A stretch of DNA of 5,949 bases from a virus, in IMG/VR virus record IMGVR_UViG_3300045988_009401. The stretch is one strand, 5' to 3'. A program made the position numbers and the translations under genes. The notes under the pieces are model-generated. The model was given only the letters and a program-made list of their open reading frames with translations, was not told where the DNA came from and searched no databases. The stretch's first letter is position 1, and every line of letters begins with the position of its first letter. This document shows positions 1,598-5,949 of this stretch, one piece after another.

Positions 1598-3262
1598 TTA
1601 CAGCTTATACAGTCCCGGCACGCTATAAAGCGGCATTCTGCGCGTGGTATTGTTTGCTACGCGGATTGCACCGAAAAATTGTGGTTCATTCTGTTCGATC
1701 AGTGTTCTTGCAATCTCTGCTTTTCCTTCTACCATCCATTCTTGCGACAGTGTAGGAACGGTTGCGTAGTTATCAGCGTAGTGCCAGAAGTCCAACGTAC
1801 CTTCTGCGTTGCTTCTCATAAGGCCGCTAACGCGGTTCGGTTTCATCCGGTAGTCTGCCCATGCTTCCTGATAGCCGAATGTCTCTTCGTCGGTCGCATC
1901 ACCTGTGAGCATGATCTCCTTCTTTTTTACCGGCTGTTCGCCTAGATTTGCAAACTGCGGCACGTAATAGTCTAGCCTGTCTTGTCTGCTCCAAAAGCGC
2001 TCAAGACCCTGCTGATAGCTGTGATTGTGTCTCACACATGCAACGCCAATTACGAAACCGTGCTCTTCAAAACTTTTTGTGAAAGAGCTTTCGTTGATAG
2101 GTGTAACGGACATTGCGCCTGTTTCACCGATAGGCGTGTCGTTGTTTGCCTGTTGGCCGCTGGTCTGCACGATCTGGTTGATGTTGACATGATATCTGCC
2201 TCCGCCTAGATACTCAGGCACCTGTACCGTTTTATCCGAAATGACAACGTCCCAAATTGCCTGTACCTGCTCACGATATCTGGAACCGCCCCGTGCCAGC
2301 GCCTCATAGTACTGTTGCACGCTGATGGCCTGTCGTAACTGGTTGACAGTTGTTTTTGCTCCTGTTGCTGTTTTGTCTCCTGTAAGATTTACGTACAGAT
2401 TGCCTTGATTTACTTGTGTTCCGCCTGATGTTGTTGCGCCTGTTACTGTTGCCGCACTGCCGCCGCCGCCGTCAATTGTACCTGTTGCAAATCCACTACC
2501 GTTCATGAAGATTGTGCCTTTTGGGTTCAGTCCGGCTAGATCTCTTAATTCTACCGGGTACAATCCACCTAACTGAATTGTCACCTCTGGTCCACGCTGA
2601 GGATAAGGTAAACAGGATGTGAAATAGTCATGAAACTTGTTCACCGGTAAAAGATTACCGCCTGTTACCGCTTCCTGCAGTTCTTTTTCCATCGTGTCTT
2701 TTTCGCCGGTGCTCATGGCGTATATCACATCTTCATCGTCACTTTTCAGGACTGCAGCGTTGCCTACGTTTTCGTCCCTGAAGAACTCGTTCCAGATTTT
2801 CACATACGCTCTGATAGGCAGTGCGTTGATGCTGAAAGGCTTTTTCACCTTCGTAGGTACGCCCATGTAGTCCAGAATGGACTTTTCATCCGGTGCCGGT
2901 TTTTCATTCGTCCCGTTGATTTTGATTTGCGGTACCGTGTAGTTTTTTGTTGGCATCCACGGCCTTTCTTCCACTTCGCCCATGAAATGCTTGAAATTGT
3001 CCCACAGGATCCGGTTAGGACAGTAGAAATAATAGAAATCGATAAAGCTATCGTCCATTACCGGATATTTGGGAGTCGTCATACGGATAATGGCCTGTGT
3101 GTCAACGCTGAACGTATCGCCCGGTAGGACTTCATCCACGTAAAATGGAATTAGTTTTCCTGCGTCAAATGTGGTCAGGATAATTTGGTCTCGATTGAAT
3201 CGCGTTCGGCTTGCTTTCATCTGTGGAATTTGATTAAAATGCCGCTCGTTATTCCTGTTCAT
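1598..3262 (-). CDS. VP1: Major capsid protein VP1 (Microviridae F-like, gokushovirus type), 554 aa.
   Basis: The N-terminal region reads RFNRDQIILTTFDAGKLIPFYVDEVLPGDTF, matching the conserved gokushovirus VP1 signature (TTFDAG.LIP...DEVLPGDTF). The length is typical. The start is ATG at 3262..3260, preceded by GGAAGGAGA eight nt upstream. The stop is TAA at 1600..1598. Confidence 0.95.
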   Translation of the reverse strand: MNRNNERHFNQIPQMKASRTRFNRDQIILTTFDAGKLIPFYVDEVLPGDTFSVDTQAIIRMTTPKYPVMDDSFIDFYYFYCPNRILWDNFKHFMGEVEERPWMPTKNYTVPQIKINGTNEKPAPDEKSILDYMGVPTKVKKPFSINALPIRAYVKIWNEFFRDENVGNAAVLKSDDEDVIYAMSTGEKDTMEKELQEAVTGGNLLPVNKFHDYFTSCLPYPQRGPEVTIQLGGLYPVELRDLAGLNPKGTIFMNGSGFATGTIDGGGGSAATVTGATTSGGTQVNQGNLYVNLTGDKTATGAKTTVNQLRQAISVQQYYEALARGGSRYREQVQAIWDVVISDKTVQVPEYLGGGRYHVNINQIVQTSGQQANNDTPIGETGAMSVTPINESSFTKSFEEHGFVIGVACVRHNHSYQQGLERFWSRQDRLDYYVPQFANLGEQPVKKKEIMLTGDATDEETFGYQEAWADYRMKPNRVSGLMRSNAEGTLDFWHYADNYATVPTLSQEWMVEGKAEIARTLIEQNEPQFFGAIRVANNTTRRMPLYSVPGLYKL

Positions 3263-4235: not shown

Positions 4236-4352
4236 TTACTCCTTTTCGTTCGGCTGGTCGTGTAGGGCATGGTAGATCTCGTCCAGCTTTTCCAGAATCT
4301 GCATCATGATTTTGATAGCCTGTTTGACGTCTTTAATACTGATAAGAGCCAT
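4236..4352 (-). CDS. Small hypothetical peptide, 38 aa (MALISIKDVKQAIKIMMQILEKLDEIYHALHDQPNEKE). Alternatively a 65-aa form from the ATG at 4433, which overlaps the peptidase gene.
   Basis: The ATG at 4352..4350 lies 4 nt after the peptidase stop codon (4359..4357), with SD AAGGGGGT 8 nt upstream. The 65-aa form in the track starts at the ATG at 4433, which sits inside the peptidase coding sequence in another frame. Confidence 0.4.
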   Translation of the reverse strand: MALISIKDVKQAIKIMMQILEKLDEIYHALHDQPNEKE

Positions 4353-4356
4353 TTGC

Positions 4357-4746
4357 TTACACCCCCTTTCTGTATGTTTTGGTGCGCGTGTCGATGTGCA
4401 CCCATGTATTGTATACGATGATGCCGCATCCATTTGGGATGATTTTCTTCAGTTTGTTGGCAATTTCTTTTGCGGTCATGCCATCAACTCGAATGTCTGC
4501 GGCCATTCCCCGCATGTGATATGAGTATTTTGCACCGCCCACCGCTTTATTCCTTGTCGGTGTCCGGTATCCGCTGTTTATGTGTACCGGCTTTCCAACT
4601 TGGTTTCTGAGAATGTCCAGAATCGATACAAGGTAGTCATCTATGAAAACTATCTGAGAACCGTCTCTGCAAGCAAATTCCTTTACTTTGAAGTGCTTTC
4701 CAACGTTTTCGTTTGCGTCTGTGTCCATGATATAGCATTTAATCAT
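4357..4746 (-). CDS. Zinc metallopeptidase of the Peptidase_M15_3 / M15A family (VanY/YcbK-like peptidoglycan peptidase, a putative endolysin). About 129 aa from the ATG at 4746; the track form starts at TTG 4755.
   Basis: The translation contains the family signature SGYRTPTRNKAVGGAKYSYHMRGMAADI ... WVHIDTR. That is an SxHxxGxAxD zinc-binding block plus a C-terminal HxD/H ligand, preceded by FACRDG. The ATG at 4746..4744 follows AAAGGA. The track ORF starts 9 nt upstream at TTG 4755..4753. The stop is TAA at 4359..4357. Confidence 0.85.
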   Translation of the reverse strand: MIKCYIMDTDANENVGKHFKVKEFACRDGSQIVFIDDYLVSILDILRNQVGKPVHINSGYRTPTRNKAVGGAKYSYHMRGMAADIRVDGMTAKEIANKLKKIIPNGCGIIVYNTWVHIDTRTKTYRKGV

Positions 4747-4751
4747 TCTTG

Positions 4752-4970
4752 TCAATTCCTTTTTACTACAGCTACGTCTTCTAAGAATTTTTTTTCTACC
4801 TTGTACAGTCCATCTTCGTCTAGCTCATTTCCTAACTCGAATGCGTATTTTCTGCAGATGATTTTATCACTCTTCCTGTATAGCTTTTCGTAGTTGTACT
4901 TTTTTCCCATCATGTATCCGAAAAAATCGAGTTCTATATAATTTTGTTCGCGCACGTAGACTTTTTTCAT
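4752..4970 (-). CDS. Hypothetical protein, 72 aa, the first gene downstream of the promoter.
   Basis: ATG at 4970..4968 with GGAAGG SD 8 nt upstream, lying 33 nt downstream of the predicted -10. The stop is TGA at 4754..4752, 6 nt before the peptidase ATG. The protein is Lys/Tyr/Glu-rich with no transmembrane segment and no recognised motif. Confidence 0.5.
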   Translation of the reverse strand: MKKVYVREQNYIELDFFGYMMGKKYNYEKLYRKSDKIICRKYAFELGNELDEDGLYKVEKKFLEDVAVVKRN

Positions 4971-5002
4971 GGTGTTTACCTTCCTTTCTTTTCTGTGACT
5001 TA

Positions 5003-5031
5003 ATTATATCACATGTCAATACCTTTTTCAA
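5003..5031 (-). promoter_or_regulatory. Sigma70-type promoter on the minus strand that drives the gene cassette.
   Basis: On the minus strand the -35 is TTGAAA (5031..5026). A 17-nt spacer ending in TGA supplies the TGn of an extended -10. The -10 is a perfect TATAAT (5008..5003). The predicted start lies near 4996, and the first ATG is at 4970 behind a GGAAGG SD. Confidence 0.55.
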
Positions 5032-5076
5032 TCTTTTCGTCTCTTTGTAATAATTTGTAACCTTTCCTAGGACAGG

Positions 5077-5160
5077 AGCGCCGTTAGACTCCCGCCCTCA
5101 GGCGCTCATTTTGATAAGACCGGCAAGGCCGGTCAGACTGTCGGCGCGCTCCGTCAGACT
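5077..5160. repeat. GC-rich cluster of inverted and direct repeats upstream of the promoter, operator-like.
   Basis: An inverted repeat gagcgcc (5077..5083) / ggcgctc (5101..5107) has a 17-bp spacer. A second inverted repeat gaccggc-aag-gccggtc spans 5118..5134. Direct repeats GTCAGACT occur at 5132..5139 and 5153..5160, 21 bp apart, and a related GTTAGACT at 5083..5090. Confidence 0.6.
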
Positions 5161-5196
5161 TTGTCGTCTCCGCTCACCCTACTTTATTTGCCGTTC

Positions 5197-5352
5197 TTTC
5201 AACAGTTTCCACCGACTTTTCAACATTTCAACATTGTTAAACTTTATCACAACAGAGTGTTTCAACATTTCAACAAGTTTTCAACAAATCTTTCAACGTT
5301 TGTTTTTACCTTTTTCTAACGTTTTAACGTTCAAATTTATCTGTTTTCAACT
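5197..5352. repeat. Iteron-like array of about 9 TTTCAAC(A/G) octamers.
   Basis: TTTCAACA occurs at 5197, 5218 and 5226 (a tandem pair), at 5260 and 5268 (a tandem pair), and at 5279. TTTCAACG occurs at 5291, degenerate TTTTAACG and TTCAAA at 5322-5336, and TTTCAACT at 5345. The pattern is not CRISPR-like: the units are 8 bp and there are no spacers. Confidence 0.7.
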
Positions 5353-5397
5353 TTTCCACGTACTCTACTACTACGGCTACAACAAGTTATATAATAT

Positions 5398-5443
5398 TAC
5401 GCGTGCGCGTGTGCGCGCGTCTACGCGTGCGCGTGTGCGCGCG
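5398..5443. repeat. Tandem direct repeat, 2 x 21 nt, of perfectly alternating purine-pyrimidine CG/TG sequence (Z-DNA-prone) separated by tct.
   Basis: acgcgtgcgcgtgtgcgcgcg appears at 5399..5419 and again at 5423..5443. Each copy alternates Pu-Py strictly over 21-22 nt. The AT-rich ttatataatatt lies immediately 5' at 5387..5398. Confidence 0.8.
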
Positions 5444-5481
5444 AATAAAGCCCAGTACCTTACTTGATAGGTACTGGGCTT
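5443..5481 (-). terminator. 13-bp hairpin 11 nt after the VP4 stop. It is a candidate terminator and/or an origin hairpin.
   Basis: aagcccagtacct (5448..5460) and aggtactgggctt (5469..5481) form a perfect stem with an 8-nt loop, tacttgat. On the minus-strand RNA the stem is followed by UAUUCG, which gives a weak U-run, UUUAUU. The loop together with the adjacent base reads ACTTGATA on the + strand. Confidence 0.4.
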
Positions 5482-5492
5482 GGTGACACCGA

Positions 5493-5949
5493 TTAGAGTA
5501 TACCGCTTTTTTTCGTTTGTTTTTTGGTAACGCGTTCTTTTGCTTCTAATTGTGTTTTGTAATCTTGTCCTTCCAACTGCAGTCTTTTCTGCTCTATGGC
5601 TTTTCTCTGTCTGTTTTGCTTGATCCTCCACAGCCTTTCCGGGTTTTCTTTTTCCATCATCTTTTCATAGTATCGCGGTATTTGCGCCTTTTTGCCATTA
5701 GTGCATTGAATGTAGCCTTGTCTCCATATTTCTTCTTTGTGCTCTTGATAGTAAAGATCACCCAGTCCCGGCTTAAGTGACATACACGCGAACGGTTTTT
5801 GTTGACCTAGATCATAATATGCATTTGCTTTCTTTCCGTCAATTTCATACATTTTTTTTGTAACATACCCTGCAACATATCTATATGTTTCAGGTGTTGC
5901 TTGTGCGATCTGAATTTGACCGTTTCCCCATAGCTTTTCTAGCCATTCA
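5493..5949 (-). CDS. VP4: Replication initiator VP4, C-terminal part. Positions 5851..5949 duplicate 1..99, so this is the same gene as feature 1..569 read through the circular junction. The stop codon TAA is at 5495..5493.
   Basis: The 119-aa ORF 5493..5852 of the track extends in frame, with no stop, through the 99-bp terminal redundancy. It contains KPFACMSLKPGLG, typical of Microviridae Rep C-termini. The ATG at 5852 that the track used as a start is an internal Met. Confidence 0.88.
   Translation of the reverse strand, partial: EWLEKLWGNGQIQIAQATPETYRYVAGYVTKKMYEIDGKKANAYYDLGQQKPFACMSLKPGLGDLYYQEHKEEIWRQGYIQCTNGKKAQIPRYYEKMMEKENPERLWRIKQNRQRKAIEQKRLQLEGQDYKTQLEAKERVTKKQTKKSGIL
5851..5949. 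repeat. 99-bp terminal redundancy, an exact copy of 1..99. It marks the circular genome closure.
   Basis: I compared the two ends base by base: 5851..5949 is identical to 1..99. Confidence 0.97.

Follow-up and report, generated by a model that had tools for sequence, protein, structure and literature searches.

A putative replication-origin region of a gut gokushovirus: a conserved nick-type hairpin beside an oriC-like block

The intergenic region 4971-5492 of this gut gokushovirus is probably composite. Judging from the sequence, a hairpin that would act as rolling-circle origin stands next to a block (5197-5399) captured from the oriC of a bacterial host, and the virion would be antisense to the genes.

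The window, i.e., the whole stretch of 5,949 nucleotides that was analysed, has identical bases at 1-99 and 5851-5949 and thus represents a circular genome of 5850 nt. Every gene is on the - strand. Rep/VP4, which carries HUH (PHYHMIL) and YxxxY (YVAGY) motifs, has its stop codon at 5493-5495 (- strand), and the next gene (72 aa, - strand) starts at 4970; 4971-5492 is thus intergenic. The first-pass annotation had described a non-coding, replication-origin region, and both descriptions are supported for 4971-5492. Of 86 relatives, at most 11 keep any given reading frame open across the core, and Rfam and tRNA scans of 4971-5492 gave zero matches. All the features then listed are present, far beyond chance and with coordinates good to a few bases, except that the repeat array ends at 5359 and not at 5352.

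It is extremely improbable that an assembly chimera, host contamination, a small protein or an ncRNA explains the region. The block does have homology to bacterial DNA, and an ORF of 118 aa is present on the + strand (5111-5467). However, the same block is found at the same genomic position in more than 80 independent assemblies (pig, human, monkey and other samples). The 118-aa ORF was rejected as a protein, no frame being conserved among the relatives. An ncRNA is further opposed by the missing Rfam match and by the repeat/AT core, which is unstructured as ssDNA. The features are the following.

4979-4985, - strand: Shine-Dalgarno sequence AGGAAGG ahead of the 72-aa ORF
5003..5031, - strand: predicted sigma-70-type promoter TTGAAA-17-TGaTATAAT, serving the 72-aa ORF and downstream genes
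5063..5196, unstranded: GC-rich nest of nested inverted repeats, with a predicted three-way ssDNA structure
5197..5343, + strand: distal DnaA-box-like cluster, TTTCAAC x7 and TTTCCAC x1 in a single orientation
5344..5360, + strand: tandem DnaA-box pair, TTTTCAACT (5344-5352) and TTTCCACG (5353-5360), next to the trios
5361..5386, + strand: DnaA-trio-like stretch, spacer TACT and seven in-phase trinucleotides CTA CTA CTA CGG CTA CAA CAA
5387..5399, unstranded: AT-only block TTATATAATATTA, putative DNA unwinding element, conserved and directly after the trios
5398-5420 (23 nt) and 5422-5443 (22 nt), unstranded: two perfectly alternating purine/pyrimidine (CG/TG) runs with Z-DNA-forming potential
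5443..5492, + strand: putative rolling-circle (Rep/VP4) origin, from conservation, covariation, a covariance model and the match to the phiX174 core

The leader 4971-5062 is kept in some relatives. The hexamers of its promoter match 11 of 12 positions, with a TG-extended -10 in addition, and a promoter role would follow from this match. A search of the core for Bacteroides-type or further sigma-70 promoters gave no convincing candidate.

The hairpin next to the rep stop codon

The hairpin is perfect and has 13 bp, as the first-pass annotation had reported, with arms at 5448-5460 and 5469-5481 and an 8-nt loop, TACTTGAT, at 5461-5468. Its folding energy is -14.9 kcal/mol (z -5.6). On its 3' side the flank GGTGACACC (5482-5490) is invariant and ends 2 nt short of the Rep stop. 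Conservation of the loop among relatives, proposed earlier as a check, is confirmed: about 88 of 90 relatives carry the loop TACTTGAT and the 3' flank GGTGACAC almost unchanged. At 88-100%, the conservation of loop, 3' arm and flank exceeds that of the adjoining Rep coding sequence (68-89%). Seven of nine stem pairs show covariation, a level reached by none of 500 shuffles. The covariance model (R1) gives 65.9 bits (E 1.5e-15) for the hairpin on the + strand of the window and 12.3 bits on the - strand.

The same element, i.e., hairpin-(Y)ACTTGAT-stem-TAGGTGAC, is also found in the VP3-ORF8 intergenic region of Chp2 (2902-2951) and in dozens of divergent gokushoviruses, metagenomic genomes included, with 20-55 bits across clades. 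A shorter, related form is located near 1641 in SpV4; phiMH2K gave no match with the hairpin covariance model. The window has the characters of the Gokushovirinae hairpin: ACTTGAT in the loop, a covarying stem and a 3' flank (T/A)(G/A)GTGAC. Two L011-type relatives have another loop, AGCCTTGTCA.

Protein A of phiX174 nicks CAACTTG^ATA, within a 30-bp ori in gene A. The claim that the loop carries this core holds: the bases at 5462-5469, ACTTGATA, are those of phiX174 4301-4308, and the phiX174 record annotates rep_origin at 4306. The comparison with the phiX174/G4 origin (CAACTTG^ATATTAATAACACTATAGACCAC) leads to the following likenesses: (i) the same eight bases, ACTTGATA, surrounding the cleavage site, i.e., the core ACTTG^ATA; (ii) a second conserved block ending in CACC at the same 21-nt distance; (iii) a Rep with HUH and YxxxY motifs. 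The differences are that (i) the core is in the loop of a 13-bp hairpin here and in an AT-rich linear site there; (ii) the site is outside any gene, 2 nt away from the stop codon of rep, whereas that of phiX174 is inside the rep gene, so that instead of a tripartite 30-bp site with an AT-rich spacer in rep, the spacer is a GC-containing hairpin arm; (iii) the origin is not on the gene-sense strand, the genes being on the - strand and both motif and model match on the + strand. The last point had been raised as a caveat in the first-pass annotation, correctly.

The hairpin is most likely the Rep nick site, for which it is the best candidate, and the predicted nick is putatively located at G5466|A5467 on the + strand. 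It had been suggested that the motif is a coincidence or the hairpin a plain Rep terminator. Both suggestions fail because the loop and the one-sided flank are invariant across the subfamily; the tail, in addition, is not T-rich in some clades. We know of no experimental definition of the Gokushovirinae plus-strand origin, and a literature search for a published gokushovirus origin or a paper on the hairpin element returned nothing relevant.

The repeat and AT block and its bacterial counterparts

TTTCMAC occurs 10 times in the whole window, both strands being searched, and all copies are on the + strand within 5197-5359 (163 nt). The expected number is 2.3, and none of 200 shuffles reached 10. 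Tandem pairs are found at 5218/5226 and 5260/5268. Conservation of these repeats, another check proposed earlier, is verified, since their positions are conserved columns among 89 relatives. Of 94 clade loci, 80 retain the tandem pair beside the trios, and the whole module is kept in the same proportion (80/94); its spacer differs between loci, its boxes and trios do not.

In bacteria, the basal unwinding system (BUS) of oriC is composed of a DnaA-box pair, DnaA-trios and an AT-rich DUE (Richardson/Murray; PMC8287927, PMC6669920). By its rules, one box deviates from TTATCCACA at no more than 2 positions and is located 0-16 bp from the trios, and another box in tandem may have up to 4 mismatches (PMC8287927). 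DnaA-box6/7 of B. subtilis is TTATCCACA-AATCCACA, abutting as 9+8 nt (PMC8287927 supplement); its spacer and trios are GGCC-CTACTATTACTTCTACTA. The trio sequence of C. difficile is CACCTACTACTATTACTACTATGA.

The two scaffolds are comparable: TTATCCACA AATCCACA GGCC CTACTA... for B. subtilis and TTTTCAACT TTTCCACG TACT CTACTACTA for the window. Thus (i) TTTTCCACG has 2 mismatches (only 1 in most relatives, TTTTCCACA) and TTTTCAACT has 3; (ii) the abutting tandem boxes read as TTATCCACA on the strand with 5'-CTA-3', with a spacer of about 4 nt, as in bacteria; (iii) three or more trios with a central A (3'-GAT-5') follow one another and lead to the AT-only stretch 5387-5399; (iv) a distal box cluster lies upstream, also as in bacteria. 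The complement of 5365-5385 reads 3'-GAT GAT GAT GCC GAT GTT GTT-5', i.e., the trio strand is the - strand. The trio module of the window also fits the C. difficile trio.

Unlike a bacterial BUS, the block is on a 5.85-kb ssDNA phage genome, away from dnaA: it lies between rep and the 72-aa ORF and not next to dnaA/dnaN, whereas the dnaA-dnaN interval is where its bacterial homologues are found. In addition, the orientation of the phage block varies among relatives, and after it comes a (CG/TG)n tract, which was not regularly observed in the bacterial origins.

The pattern TTTCMACNTTTCMACN{3,7}CTACTACTA, with a chance expectation <1, matched at least 120 bacterial genomes, once each. The flanks were readable in 8 loci. 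DnaN- and RecF-like ORFs are found downstream in all 8, and a DnaA-like ORF upstream wherever the locus extends; Pfam confirmed this arrangement for L343. The core is colinear with the Clostridia oriC regions L400 and L344 (score 135 vs. 47 +/- 7 for shuffles), and the colinear Clostridia loci are dnaA-dnaN origins of gut MAGs. Among the bacterial origins compared, only those of gut Clostridia have a majority of TTTCAAC boxes, as in the phage.

The TTTC(A/C)AC repeats are thus best read as host DnaA boxes, since box type, orientation, spacing, trios, unwinding element and colinearity all match oriC. The first-pass annotation had counted about nine iteron-like TTTCAAC octamers; the repeats are real, but their reading as Rep iterons does not stand. 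It must be noticed that a scan of the whole window for the canonical DnaA box TTWTNCACA (up to 1 mismatch) revealed no enrichment. TTTTCAACA deviates from the canonical box at position 6. A literature search for DnaA boxes in Microviridae found nothing relevant, no virus copies were found in GTDB representative genomes, and plasmid database searches with the GC nest and with the core gave no match.

Iterons, AT block and hairpin had been taken together as a single rolling-circle double-strand origin, comparable to those of pMV158 or geminiviruses, where Rep iterons (TTTCAAC), unwinding element (AT block) and nick site (hairpin) would work as one. Repeats, AT block and nick-type hairpin are indeed located within 300 nt and are all conserved; pMV158 bind/nic loci and geminivirus/CRESS origins also have direct repeats near a hairpin with a nick motif in its loop. 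In contrast to these origins, the repeats of the phage are separable from the hairpin, invertible relative to it and homologous to host DnaA boxes. The cassette of repeats and AT block is inverted relative to hairpin and genes in four relatives (L011, L071, L090 and L014), i.e., the repeats are not fixed in position and orientation with respect to the nick hairpin. It is absent from other gokushovirus clades which have the same hairpin and related Reps, and it is colinear with bacterial dnaA-dnaN origins, with trios at canonical spacing. A single origin of this type is thus very improbable.

No bounding inverted repeats were found at the inversion junctions, and an invertible promoter (inverton) was rejected on this basis. 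Enterogokushoviruses are known as prophages, and a XerCD/dif-type attachment site at the AT block was considered on that ground. It was also rejected: the AT block belongs to the trio/unwinding module, and no prophage copies were found.

The block might bind DnaA without being used as an origin, either as a sponge against host initiation or as a DnaA-dependent switch of transcription or timing. Ten boxes on a multicopy replicon, and the position of the block upstream of the main promoter, are in agreement with this; the orientation independence suits titration, and extra DnaA-box regions perturb initiation in Bacillus. Titration alone is nevertheless insufficient: it would leave unaccounted for why trios, 4-nt spacing and AT block are so strictly conserved, all three being features for single-strand binding and unwinding. 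DnaA binding without origin use is therefore considered unlikely, and the captured oriC block is preferred.

The GC nest and the CG/TG tract also belong to the origin region. The GC nest contains inverted repeats (GAGCGCC/GGCGCTC, GACCGGC/GCCGGTC and GGAGCGC/GCGCTCC) and direct repeats (GT(C/T)AGACT), and its ssDNA folding is better than that of shuffles (z -3.4 and -3.05). As a variable cassette, the nest is limited to about 12 relatives; in L011 its orientation relative to the hairpin is unchanged. One possibility is that it is a complementary-strand priming signal. The CG/TG runs form a 2 x 22-nt direct repeat and have, at the sequence level, the long perfect alternation of a Z-DNA tract, while their ssDNA folding is no better than that of shuffles. 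Runs of this type are found within 450 nt 5' of the hairpin loop in 86 of 90 clade loci (median total 45 nt), with only 3 elsewhere in 430 kb. In L011 the sequence of the tract differs and the alternation is retained.

Strand polarity of the virion

Of the genomes with the hairpin motif, 59 have it on the coding strand and 72, from about 3 lineages, on the antisense strand; the orientation flip thus rests on only about 3 independent lineages. Most clades have the intergenic element on the coding strand, and so do the Chp2-like and most phiMH2K-like genomes, whereas the window clade, L216, L249 and L275 have it on the antisense strand.

Synonymous sites of ssDNA phages gain T by deamination (PMC3278643). 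At the 4-fold sites of 40 independent close gene pairs of the window clade, where G and C are equally frequent, A/G differences amount to 339 vs. 87 for C/T. The rates give about 3.7 for G>A : C>T and 0.86 for A>G : T>C, i.e., there is a 3.7-fold C>T excess on the strand which bears ACTTGAT (hairpin, antisense). The control from sense clades is small: two Chp2-like pairs with a sense hairpin show the reverse asymmetry (C/T 21 vs. A/G 3), and nine phiMH2K-like pairs an asymmetry of about 1.0. These results suggest that the virion of the window clade would be antisense.

The 4-fold composition of the window mirrors that of phiX174. Base composition alone is not decisive on the strand, because the A/T skew at 4-fold sites overlaps between groups and exceeds +0.2 in 20 of 59 sense genomes; genome-wide and 4-fold A/T skews were thus only suggestive and were not retained as a strand test. 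Polarised singleton substitution spectra were also abandoned, the clades being too divergent and the usable sites too few, and counts in close pairs were used instead.

It is rather doubtful that the virion is the coding strand, with the hairpin acting there as TATCAAGTA, i.e., as complementary-strand origin or Rep terminator, and with the + strand ACTTGATA irrelevant. To our knowledge, all characterised Microviridae are described as positive-sense. Moreover, the hairpin is nearly palindromic and folds equally on both strands; on the - strand it comes directly after the Rep stop, with a short T-rich tail in many relatives; and some genomes with a sense hairpin are also A-rich at synonymous sites. 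On the contrary, the loop ACTTGAT and the one-sided flank TAGGTGACAC, both invariant, change strand together from clade to clade, and the substitution asymmetry puts the deamination load on the + strand. No canonical terminator was called either: a scan of 4900-5560 found no intrinsic terminator (GC-rich stem, then at least 5 T within 8 nt), the - strand tail after the hairpin is TTTATTCG, and the tail of sense clades is not T-rich. The hairpin may still serve partly as Rep terminator. The antisense virion is the preferred reading.

Proposed mechanism and significance

From conservation, covariation, architecture, oriC homology, cassette inversion and strand-asymmetric substitutions, we infer nicking, the packaged strand, DnaA binding, unwinding and downstream use; the use made of the oriC module by the phage is the speculative part. 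Two separable origins are proposed. At the first one, Rep/VP4 would recognise the extruded loop and the flank GGTGACACC and would nick the + strand at G5466|A5467, like phiX174 protein A; the nicked strand would then be displaced, recircularised and packaged. Since this strand is complementary to all mRNAs, the virion of the window clade would be antisense. The second one, 5197-5399, would be a captured copy of the unwinding region between dnaA and dnaN of a gut Clostridia host (Oscillospirales-type). On the replicative form, which is double-stranded, host DnaA would occupy the TTTC(A/C)AC boxes, oligomerise from the tandem pair onto the trios and melt the adjoining AT block. Once opened, the AT block may give entry to the helicase and primosome of the host, either to replicate the replicative form or to synthesise the complementary strand, and the box array may also titrate DnaA.

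In its widest form the proposal is more tentative: the gokushovirus clade, which is widespread in mammalian guts, could consist of negative-sense microviruses with a captured Clostridial oriC, in which a DnaA-fired replicative form would possibly ensure plasmid-like amplification or persistence besides Rep rolling-circle replication.

No other ssDNA phages are as abundant in guts and oceans as the Gokushovirinae, and the hairpin provides a concrete, family-wide origin candidate with a predicted nick position. If the orientation of the origin sets the packaged strand, some gokushovirus clades have antisense virions. This, if true, would mean that Microviridae can no longer be assumed to be positive-sense throughout, and it would affect strand-aware virome methods and mutational models. 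No description of a colinear host oriC unwinding module was found for ssDNA phages in the literature searched; the captured oriC points to DnaA-dependent replication, or to hijacked host initiation, by a 5.8-kb virus. The taxon-specific type of DnaA box (TTTCAAC) could also be a new route to host prediction for uncultured phages, here Oscillospirales. In the negative-sense reading, the host of the captured oriC would be of Oscillospirales type and possibly Gram-positive.

Genome layout and modules of the non-coding region

Positions 1-99 of the window are identical to 5851-5949 (99-nt exact terminal direct repeat, i.e., an assembly overlap), and the window therefore represents a whole gokushovirus genome, a circle of 5850 nt. 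Its nearest GenBank relatives are faecal Microviridae of pig, human and monkey (82-85% identity). Every gene is carried by the − strand, and the sole long intergenic region (4971-5492) separates the rep stop from the beginning of a 72-aa ORF.

Genes and expression signals of the window
GTG at 660, across the junction, to stop 5493-5495, − strand: Rep/VP4 (PF23343, phrog_942; HUH motif PHYHMIL and motif YVAGY)
665-1558, − strand: VP2 pilot protein
1598-3262, − strand: VP1 capsid protein
− strand: VP3 scaffold, VP5 and several small ORFs
4357-4746, − strand: M15 peptidase endolysin (Peptidase_M15_3 / phrog_894)
4752-4970, − strand: 72-aa ORF
5031-5003, − strand: strong promoter TTGAAA-17-TGaTATAAT, preceding the 72-aa ORF
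− strand: ribosome-binding site AGGAAGG, preceding the 72-aa ORF

In 4971-5492, neither Rfam nor tRNA scans gave a match, and no reading frame is conserved. A weak Rfam match to Termite-leu RNA at 545-612 (−), inside the rep coding sequence, is almost certainly due to chance (22.4 bits vs. a gathering score of 51, E 0.21). A palindrome at 4994-5013 (TGTGACTTAATTA/TAATTATATCACA) shares positions with the promoter's −10 region and is a possible operator. Related sequence also occurs in inverted form at 5382-5395.

The elements of the first-pass annotation (GC nest, repeats, AT-rich block, alternating CG/TG tract and hairpin) are all present where that annotation placed them. The non-coding region alone matched 48 GenBank microviruses (blastn), and 80 further IMG/VR relatives were collected via Rep. 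The hairpin is found in about 88 of 94 loci with 88-100% identity, i.e., above the 68-89% of the neighbouring Rep coding sequence. The 200-nt repeat block (5197-5396, hereafter the core) is found in 85 of them, the alternating tract in most and the GC nest in only about 12. The region is modular and variable in length. An extra insert of ~150-200 nt between the origin hairpin and the alternating tract was seen in the IMG/VR relatives L017-L021, L024, L029, L031 and L056. The proposal that this is an origin region holds, but its elements point to two origins of different ancestry and not to a single rolling-circle origin.

The putative origin hairpin and its strand

The two 13-bp arms of the hairpin (5448-5460 and 5469-5481) pair perfectly around the loop TACTTGAT, with a free energy of −14.9 kcal/mol (z −5.6). 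As noticed at first pass, the loop shares the phiX174 origin core: ACTTGATA at 5462-5469 is identical to phiX174 4301-4308, the GenBank record placing the phiX174 origin at 4306. Conservation in relatives, proposed as a check, is marked: loop, 3' arm and 3' flank (CTTACTTGATAGGTACTnnnCT(A/T)GGTGACAC) are nearly invariant inside the clade of the window (the window clade). Compensatory changes are seen in the outer stem (GCCCAG/CTGGGC, GCCAAG/CTTGGC, GGCCAG/CTGGCC, GTCCAG/CTGGAC, GCCTAG/CTAGGC). In a 28-sequence alignment, double changes occur at 7 of 9 stem pairs (0/500 shuffles reach 7), and ACTTGAT plus the T and GTGA flank positions are invariant.

In a pattern scan of IMG/VR, stem-(Y)ACTTGAT-stem-TAGGTGACAC was matched by 30 microvirus contigs. 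Of 80 phiMH2K-related genomes, most have the element according to a covariance model built from the 28 sequences. Chlamydia phage Chp2 shares this architecture in its VP3-ORF8 intergenic region (CTAGCGTATAACAG-TCTACTTGAT-CTGTTATACGCTAG-GTGATAGC) and SpV4 has a shorter version. Judged from these sequences, the hairpin is a family-wide origin-type element. It is probably the Rep/VP4 origin, with a predicted nick between G5466 and A5467, since an invariant loop and a one-sided invariant flank on a covarying stem suit a sequence-specific nicking protein, and since the phiX174 cleavage core recurs in the loop. A simple Rep terminator does not account for this pattern: no terminator is called and the tail is not T-rich in the sense-strand clades.

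The model gave no match in phiMH2K (L098/L218) and its closest relatives (L219-L223, L233), the coding strands of which are strongly A-rich and C-rich (A/T skew +0.29); their origin may be divergent. In L011 (549-597) and one further sequence, a variant hairpin has an 18-bp stem, both sides of which include GTGAC, and its loop is AGCCTTGTCA in place of TACTTGAT. Between this hairpin and the CG tract, L011 further carries two additional GC hairpins and a canonical terminator with a T tail.

Chp2, SpV4 and the majority of the genomes compared have ACTTGAT on the coding strand. The window clade has it antisense (covariance model 65.9 bits on + vs. 12.3 on −), in agreement with the initial caveat that the motif is on the non-coding strand; the same holds for L216 and L249/L275. 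In phiX174-type replication the nicked strand is displaced and packaged, the flipped origin therefore predicting an antisense virion.

Base composition agrees with this prediction but is not decisive. The coding strand of the window has 36% A and 19% T, and its 4-fold sites (A.43, C.21, G.22, T.14) mirror those of phiX174 (T.55, C.19, G.16, A.10). The 4-fold A/T skew ranges from +0.25 to +0.72 in antisense-hairpin genomes (n=72) and from −0.92 to +0.50 in sense-hairpin ones (n=59). Substitutions at 4-fold sites were counted in 40 independent pairs of close relatives of the window clade (genes 90-99.5% identical). There are 339 A/G vs. 87 C/T differences while G and C are equally frequent (0.17, 0.16), thus G>A on the coding strand is ~3.7 times C>T; A>G and T>C differ little (ratio 0.86). 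This implies a specific C>T excess on the + strand. The only two Chp2-like sense pairs have the opposite pattern (C/T 21, A/G 3), and phiMH2K-like pairs are neutral. An enrichment in C>T on the strand that forms the single-stranded genome has been published as the hallmark of ssDNA phages (PMC3278643). On balance, we lean towards an antisense virion in the window clade. The turkey-gut microphage PhiCA82 (HQ264138) is reported to have 38.6% A and 21.6% T (PMC3135560), an A-rich coding strand as in the window clade, and may share the flipped origin.

The repeat block and a probable host oriC

TTTC(A/C)AC occurs 10 times in the window, both strands counted (expected number 2.3; 0/200 shuffles reach 10). 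All 10 copies (8 TTTCAAC and 2 TTTCCAC) are on the + strand within 5197-5359, and an AT-only block follows at 5387-5399. The conserved columns of the core are these repeats and the block CTACTACTAC..CTACAACAAGTTATATAAT.

Box-trio-AT arrangement in the window and in B. subtilis
Window, 3' part of the core: TTTTCAACT / TTTCCACG / TACT / CTA CTA CTA CGG CTA CAA CAA / G / TTATATAATATTA
B. subtilis basal unwinding scaffold (PMC8287927 supplement): TTATCCACA / AATCCACA / GGCC / CTA CTA TTA CTT CTA CTA, then the AT-rich unwinding element

Both have the same box orientation, abutting boxes of 9+8 nt, a 4-nt spacer, at least three 3'-GAT-5' trios and an AT block; the window conforms to the published search rules for the basal unwinding system. 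Among 80 clade genomes, boxes and trios are unvarying and the spacer is variable. In C. difficile oriC2, CACCTACTACTATTACTACTATGA precedes the unwinding element (PMC7561715), and for some taxa DoriC-derived tables include both TTTTCCACA and TTTTCAACA among the variants of the DnaA box.

The pattern TTTCMACNTTTCMACN{3,7}CTACTACTA was searched in 185,579 bacterial species genomes (chance expectation <1) and gave at least 120 matches (contigs L298-L417), one per genome. Among 10 loci listed, 8 have readable flanking ORFs: DnaN- and RecF-like ORFs are downstream of the motif in all 8, and a DnaA-like ORF is upstream wherever the locus reaches far enough (DnaA, DnaN and RecF confirmed by Pfam in L343). 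Most matches listed have TTTCCAC boxes (Acidobacteriota, Selenomonadaceae, others). Mostly TTTCAAC boxes, as in the phage, are found in a gut Clostridia subset of the matches listed (Oscillospiraceae, Ruminococcus, "Eubacteriales" Hadza-gut MAGs, Ca. Faeciplasma, an uncultured Clostridia MAG), and boxes of this type appear specific to such a subset (Oscillospirales). Together with the endolysin, sigma-70-type promoters and strong Shine-Dalgarno sites, the Clostridia-type oriC hints at a Bacillota (Oscillospirales) host.

The whole 215-nt core is colinear with the oriC of two of these bacterial contigs, L400 and L344 (63-68% identity over 186-220 nt, E down to 6e-14; local alignment score 135 vs. 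47 +/- 7 for shuffles). The comparison speaks for capture from the chromosome of a host, not for convergence. As ssDNA, the core shows no structure, which fits a duplex protein-binding role. It is a separable cassette: in a minority of relatives, L011 and three others, the core aligns in the orientation opposite to that of flanks, hairpin and genes. No obvious bounding inverted repeats were seen at these four cassettes.

Inverted box-trio-AT cassettes
L011 (MG945388): 745-1128
L071: 4296-4428
L090: 2348-2483
L014 (KT264800): 739-961

Such inversion relative to the hairpin counts against a fixed geometry from Rep iterons to nick, and the TTTCAAC repeats, first taken for Rep iterons, are better read as host DnaA boxes. 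Host DnaA would bind the box cluster on the double-stranded replicative form, oligomerise from the tandem pair onto the − strand trios and open 5387-5399, allowing helicase and primosome loading. This may serve to amplify the replicative form (theta-type) or to maintain it or, alternatively, to prime complementary-strand synthesis in rolling-circle replication. The tolerated inversion fits a self-contained duplex module. Titration of DnaA by the multicopy replicon would also depress host initiation.

In the non-subscription literature searched, no description was found of (i) a gokushovirus origin hairpin; (ii) antisense packaging in Microviridae; (iii) DnaA boxes or oriC modules in this family. 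Subscription papers, e.g., the original ones on Chp2 or SpV4, may carry an earlier mention. Taken singly, an HUH-Rep nick hairpin and an oriC unwinding system are of known kinds; what seems new is their combination on a microvirus, together with the flipped strand of the origin and the host-specific type of box. The pattern and the TTTCAAC box type may help origin annotation and phage-host prediction.

The GC nest and the alternating tract

The GC nest folds better as ssDNA than shuffles (z ~ −3.2) and has no match in plasmids. It is a variable structured cassette, replaced in relatives by other GC-rich hairpins, and could be a complementary-strand priming signal.

The tract consists of two perfectly alternating purine/pyrimidine runs (5398-5420 and 5422-5443), and its ssDNA folding is not special. 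Sequence and length vary (~85 nt in L011), but the CG/TG alternation itself is kept in 86 of 90 clade genomes (median 45 nt); elsewhere, runs of this kind are nearly absent (3 in 430 kb). The tract may form Z-DNA or respond to supercoiling, or else separate the two origins as a GC clamp. As a rule it adjoins the AT block; in inverted genomes it is on the hairpin side. In L014, alternating CG tracts flank the inverted cassette on both sides.
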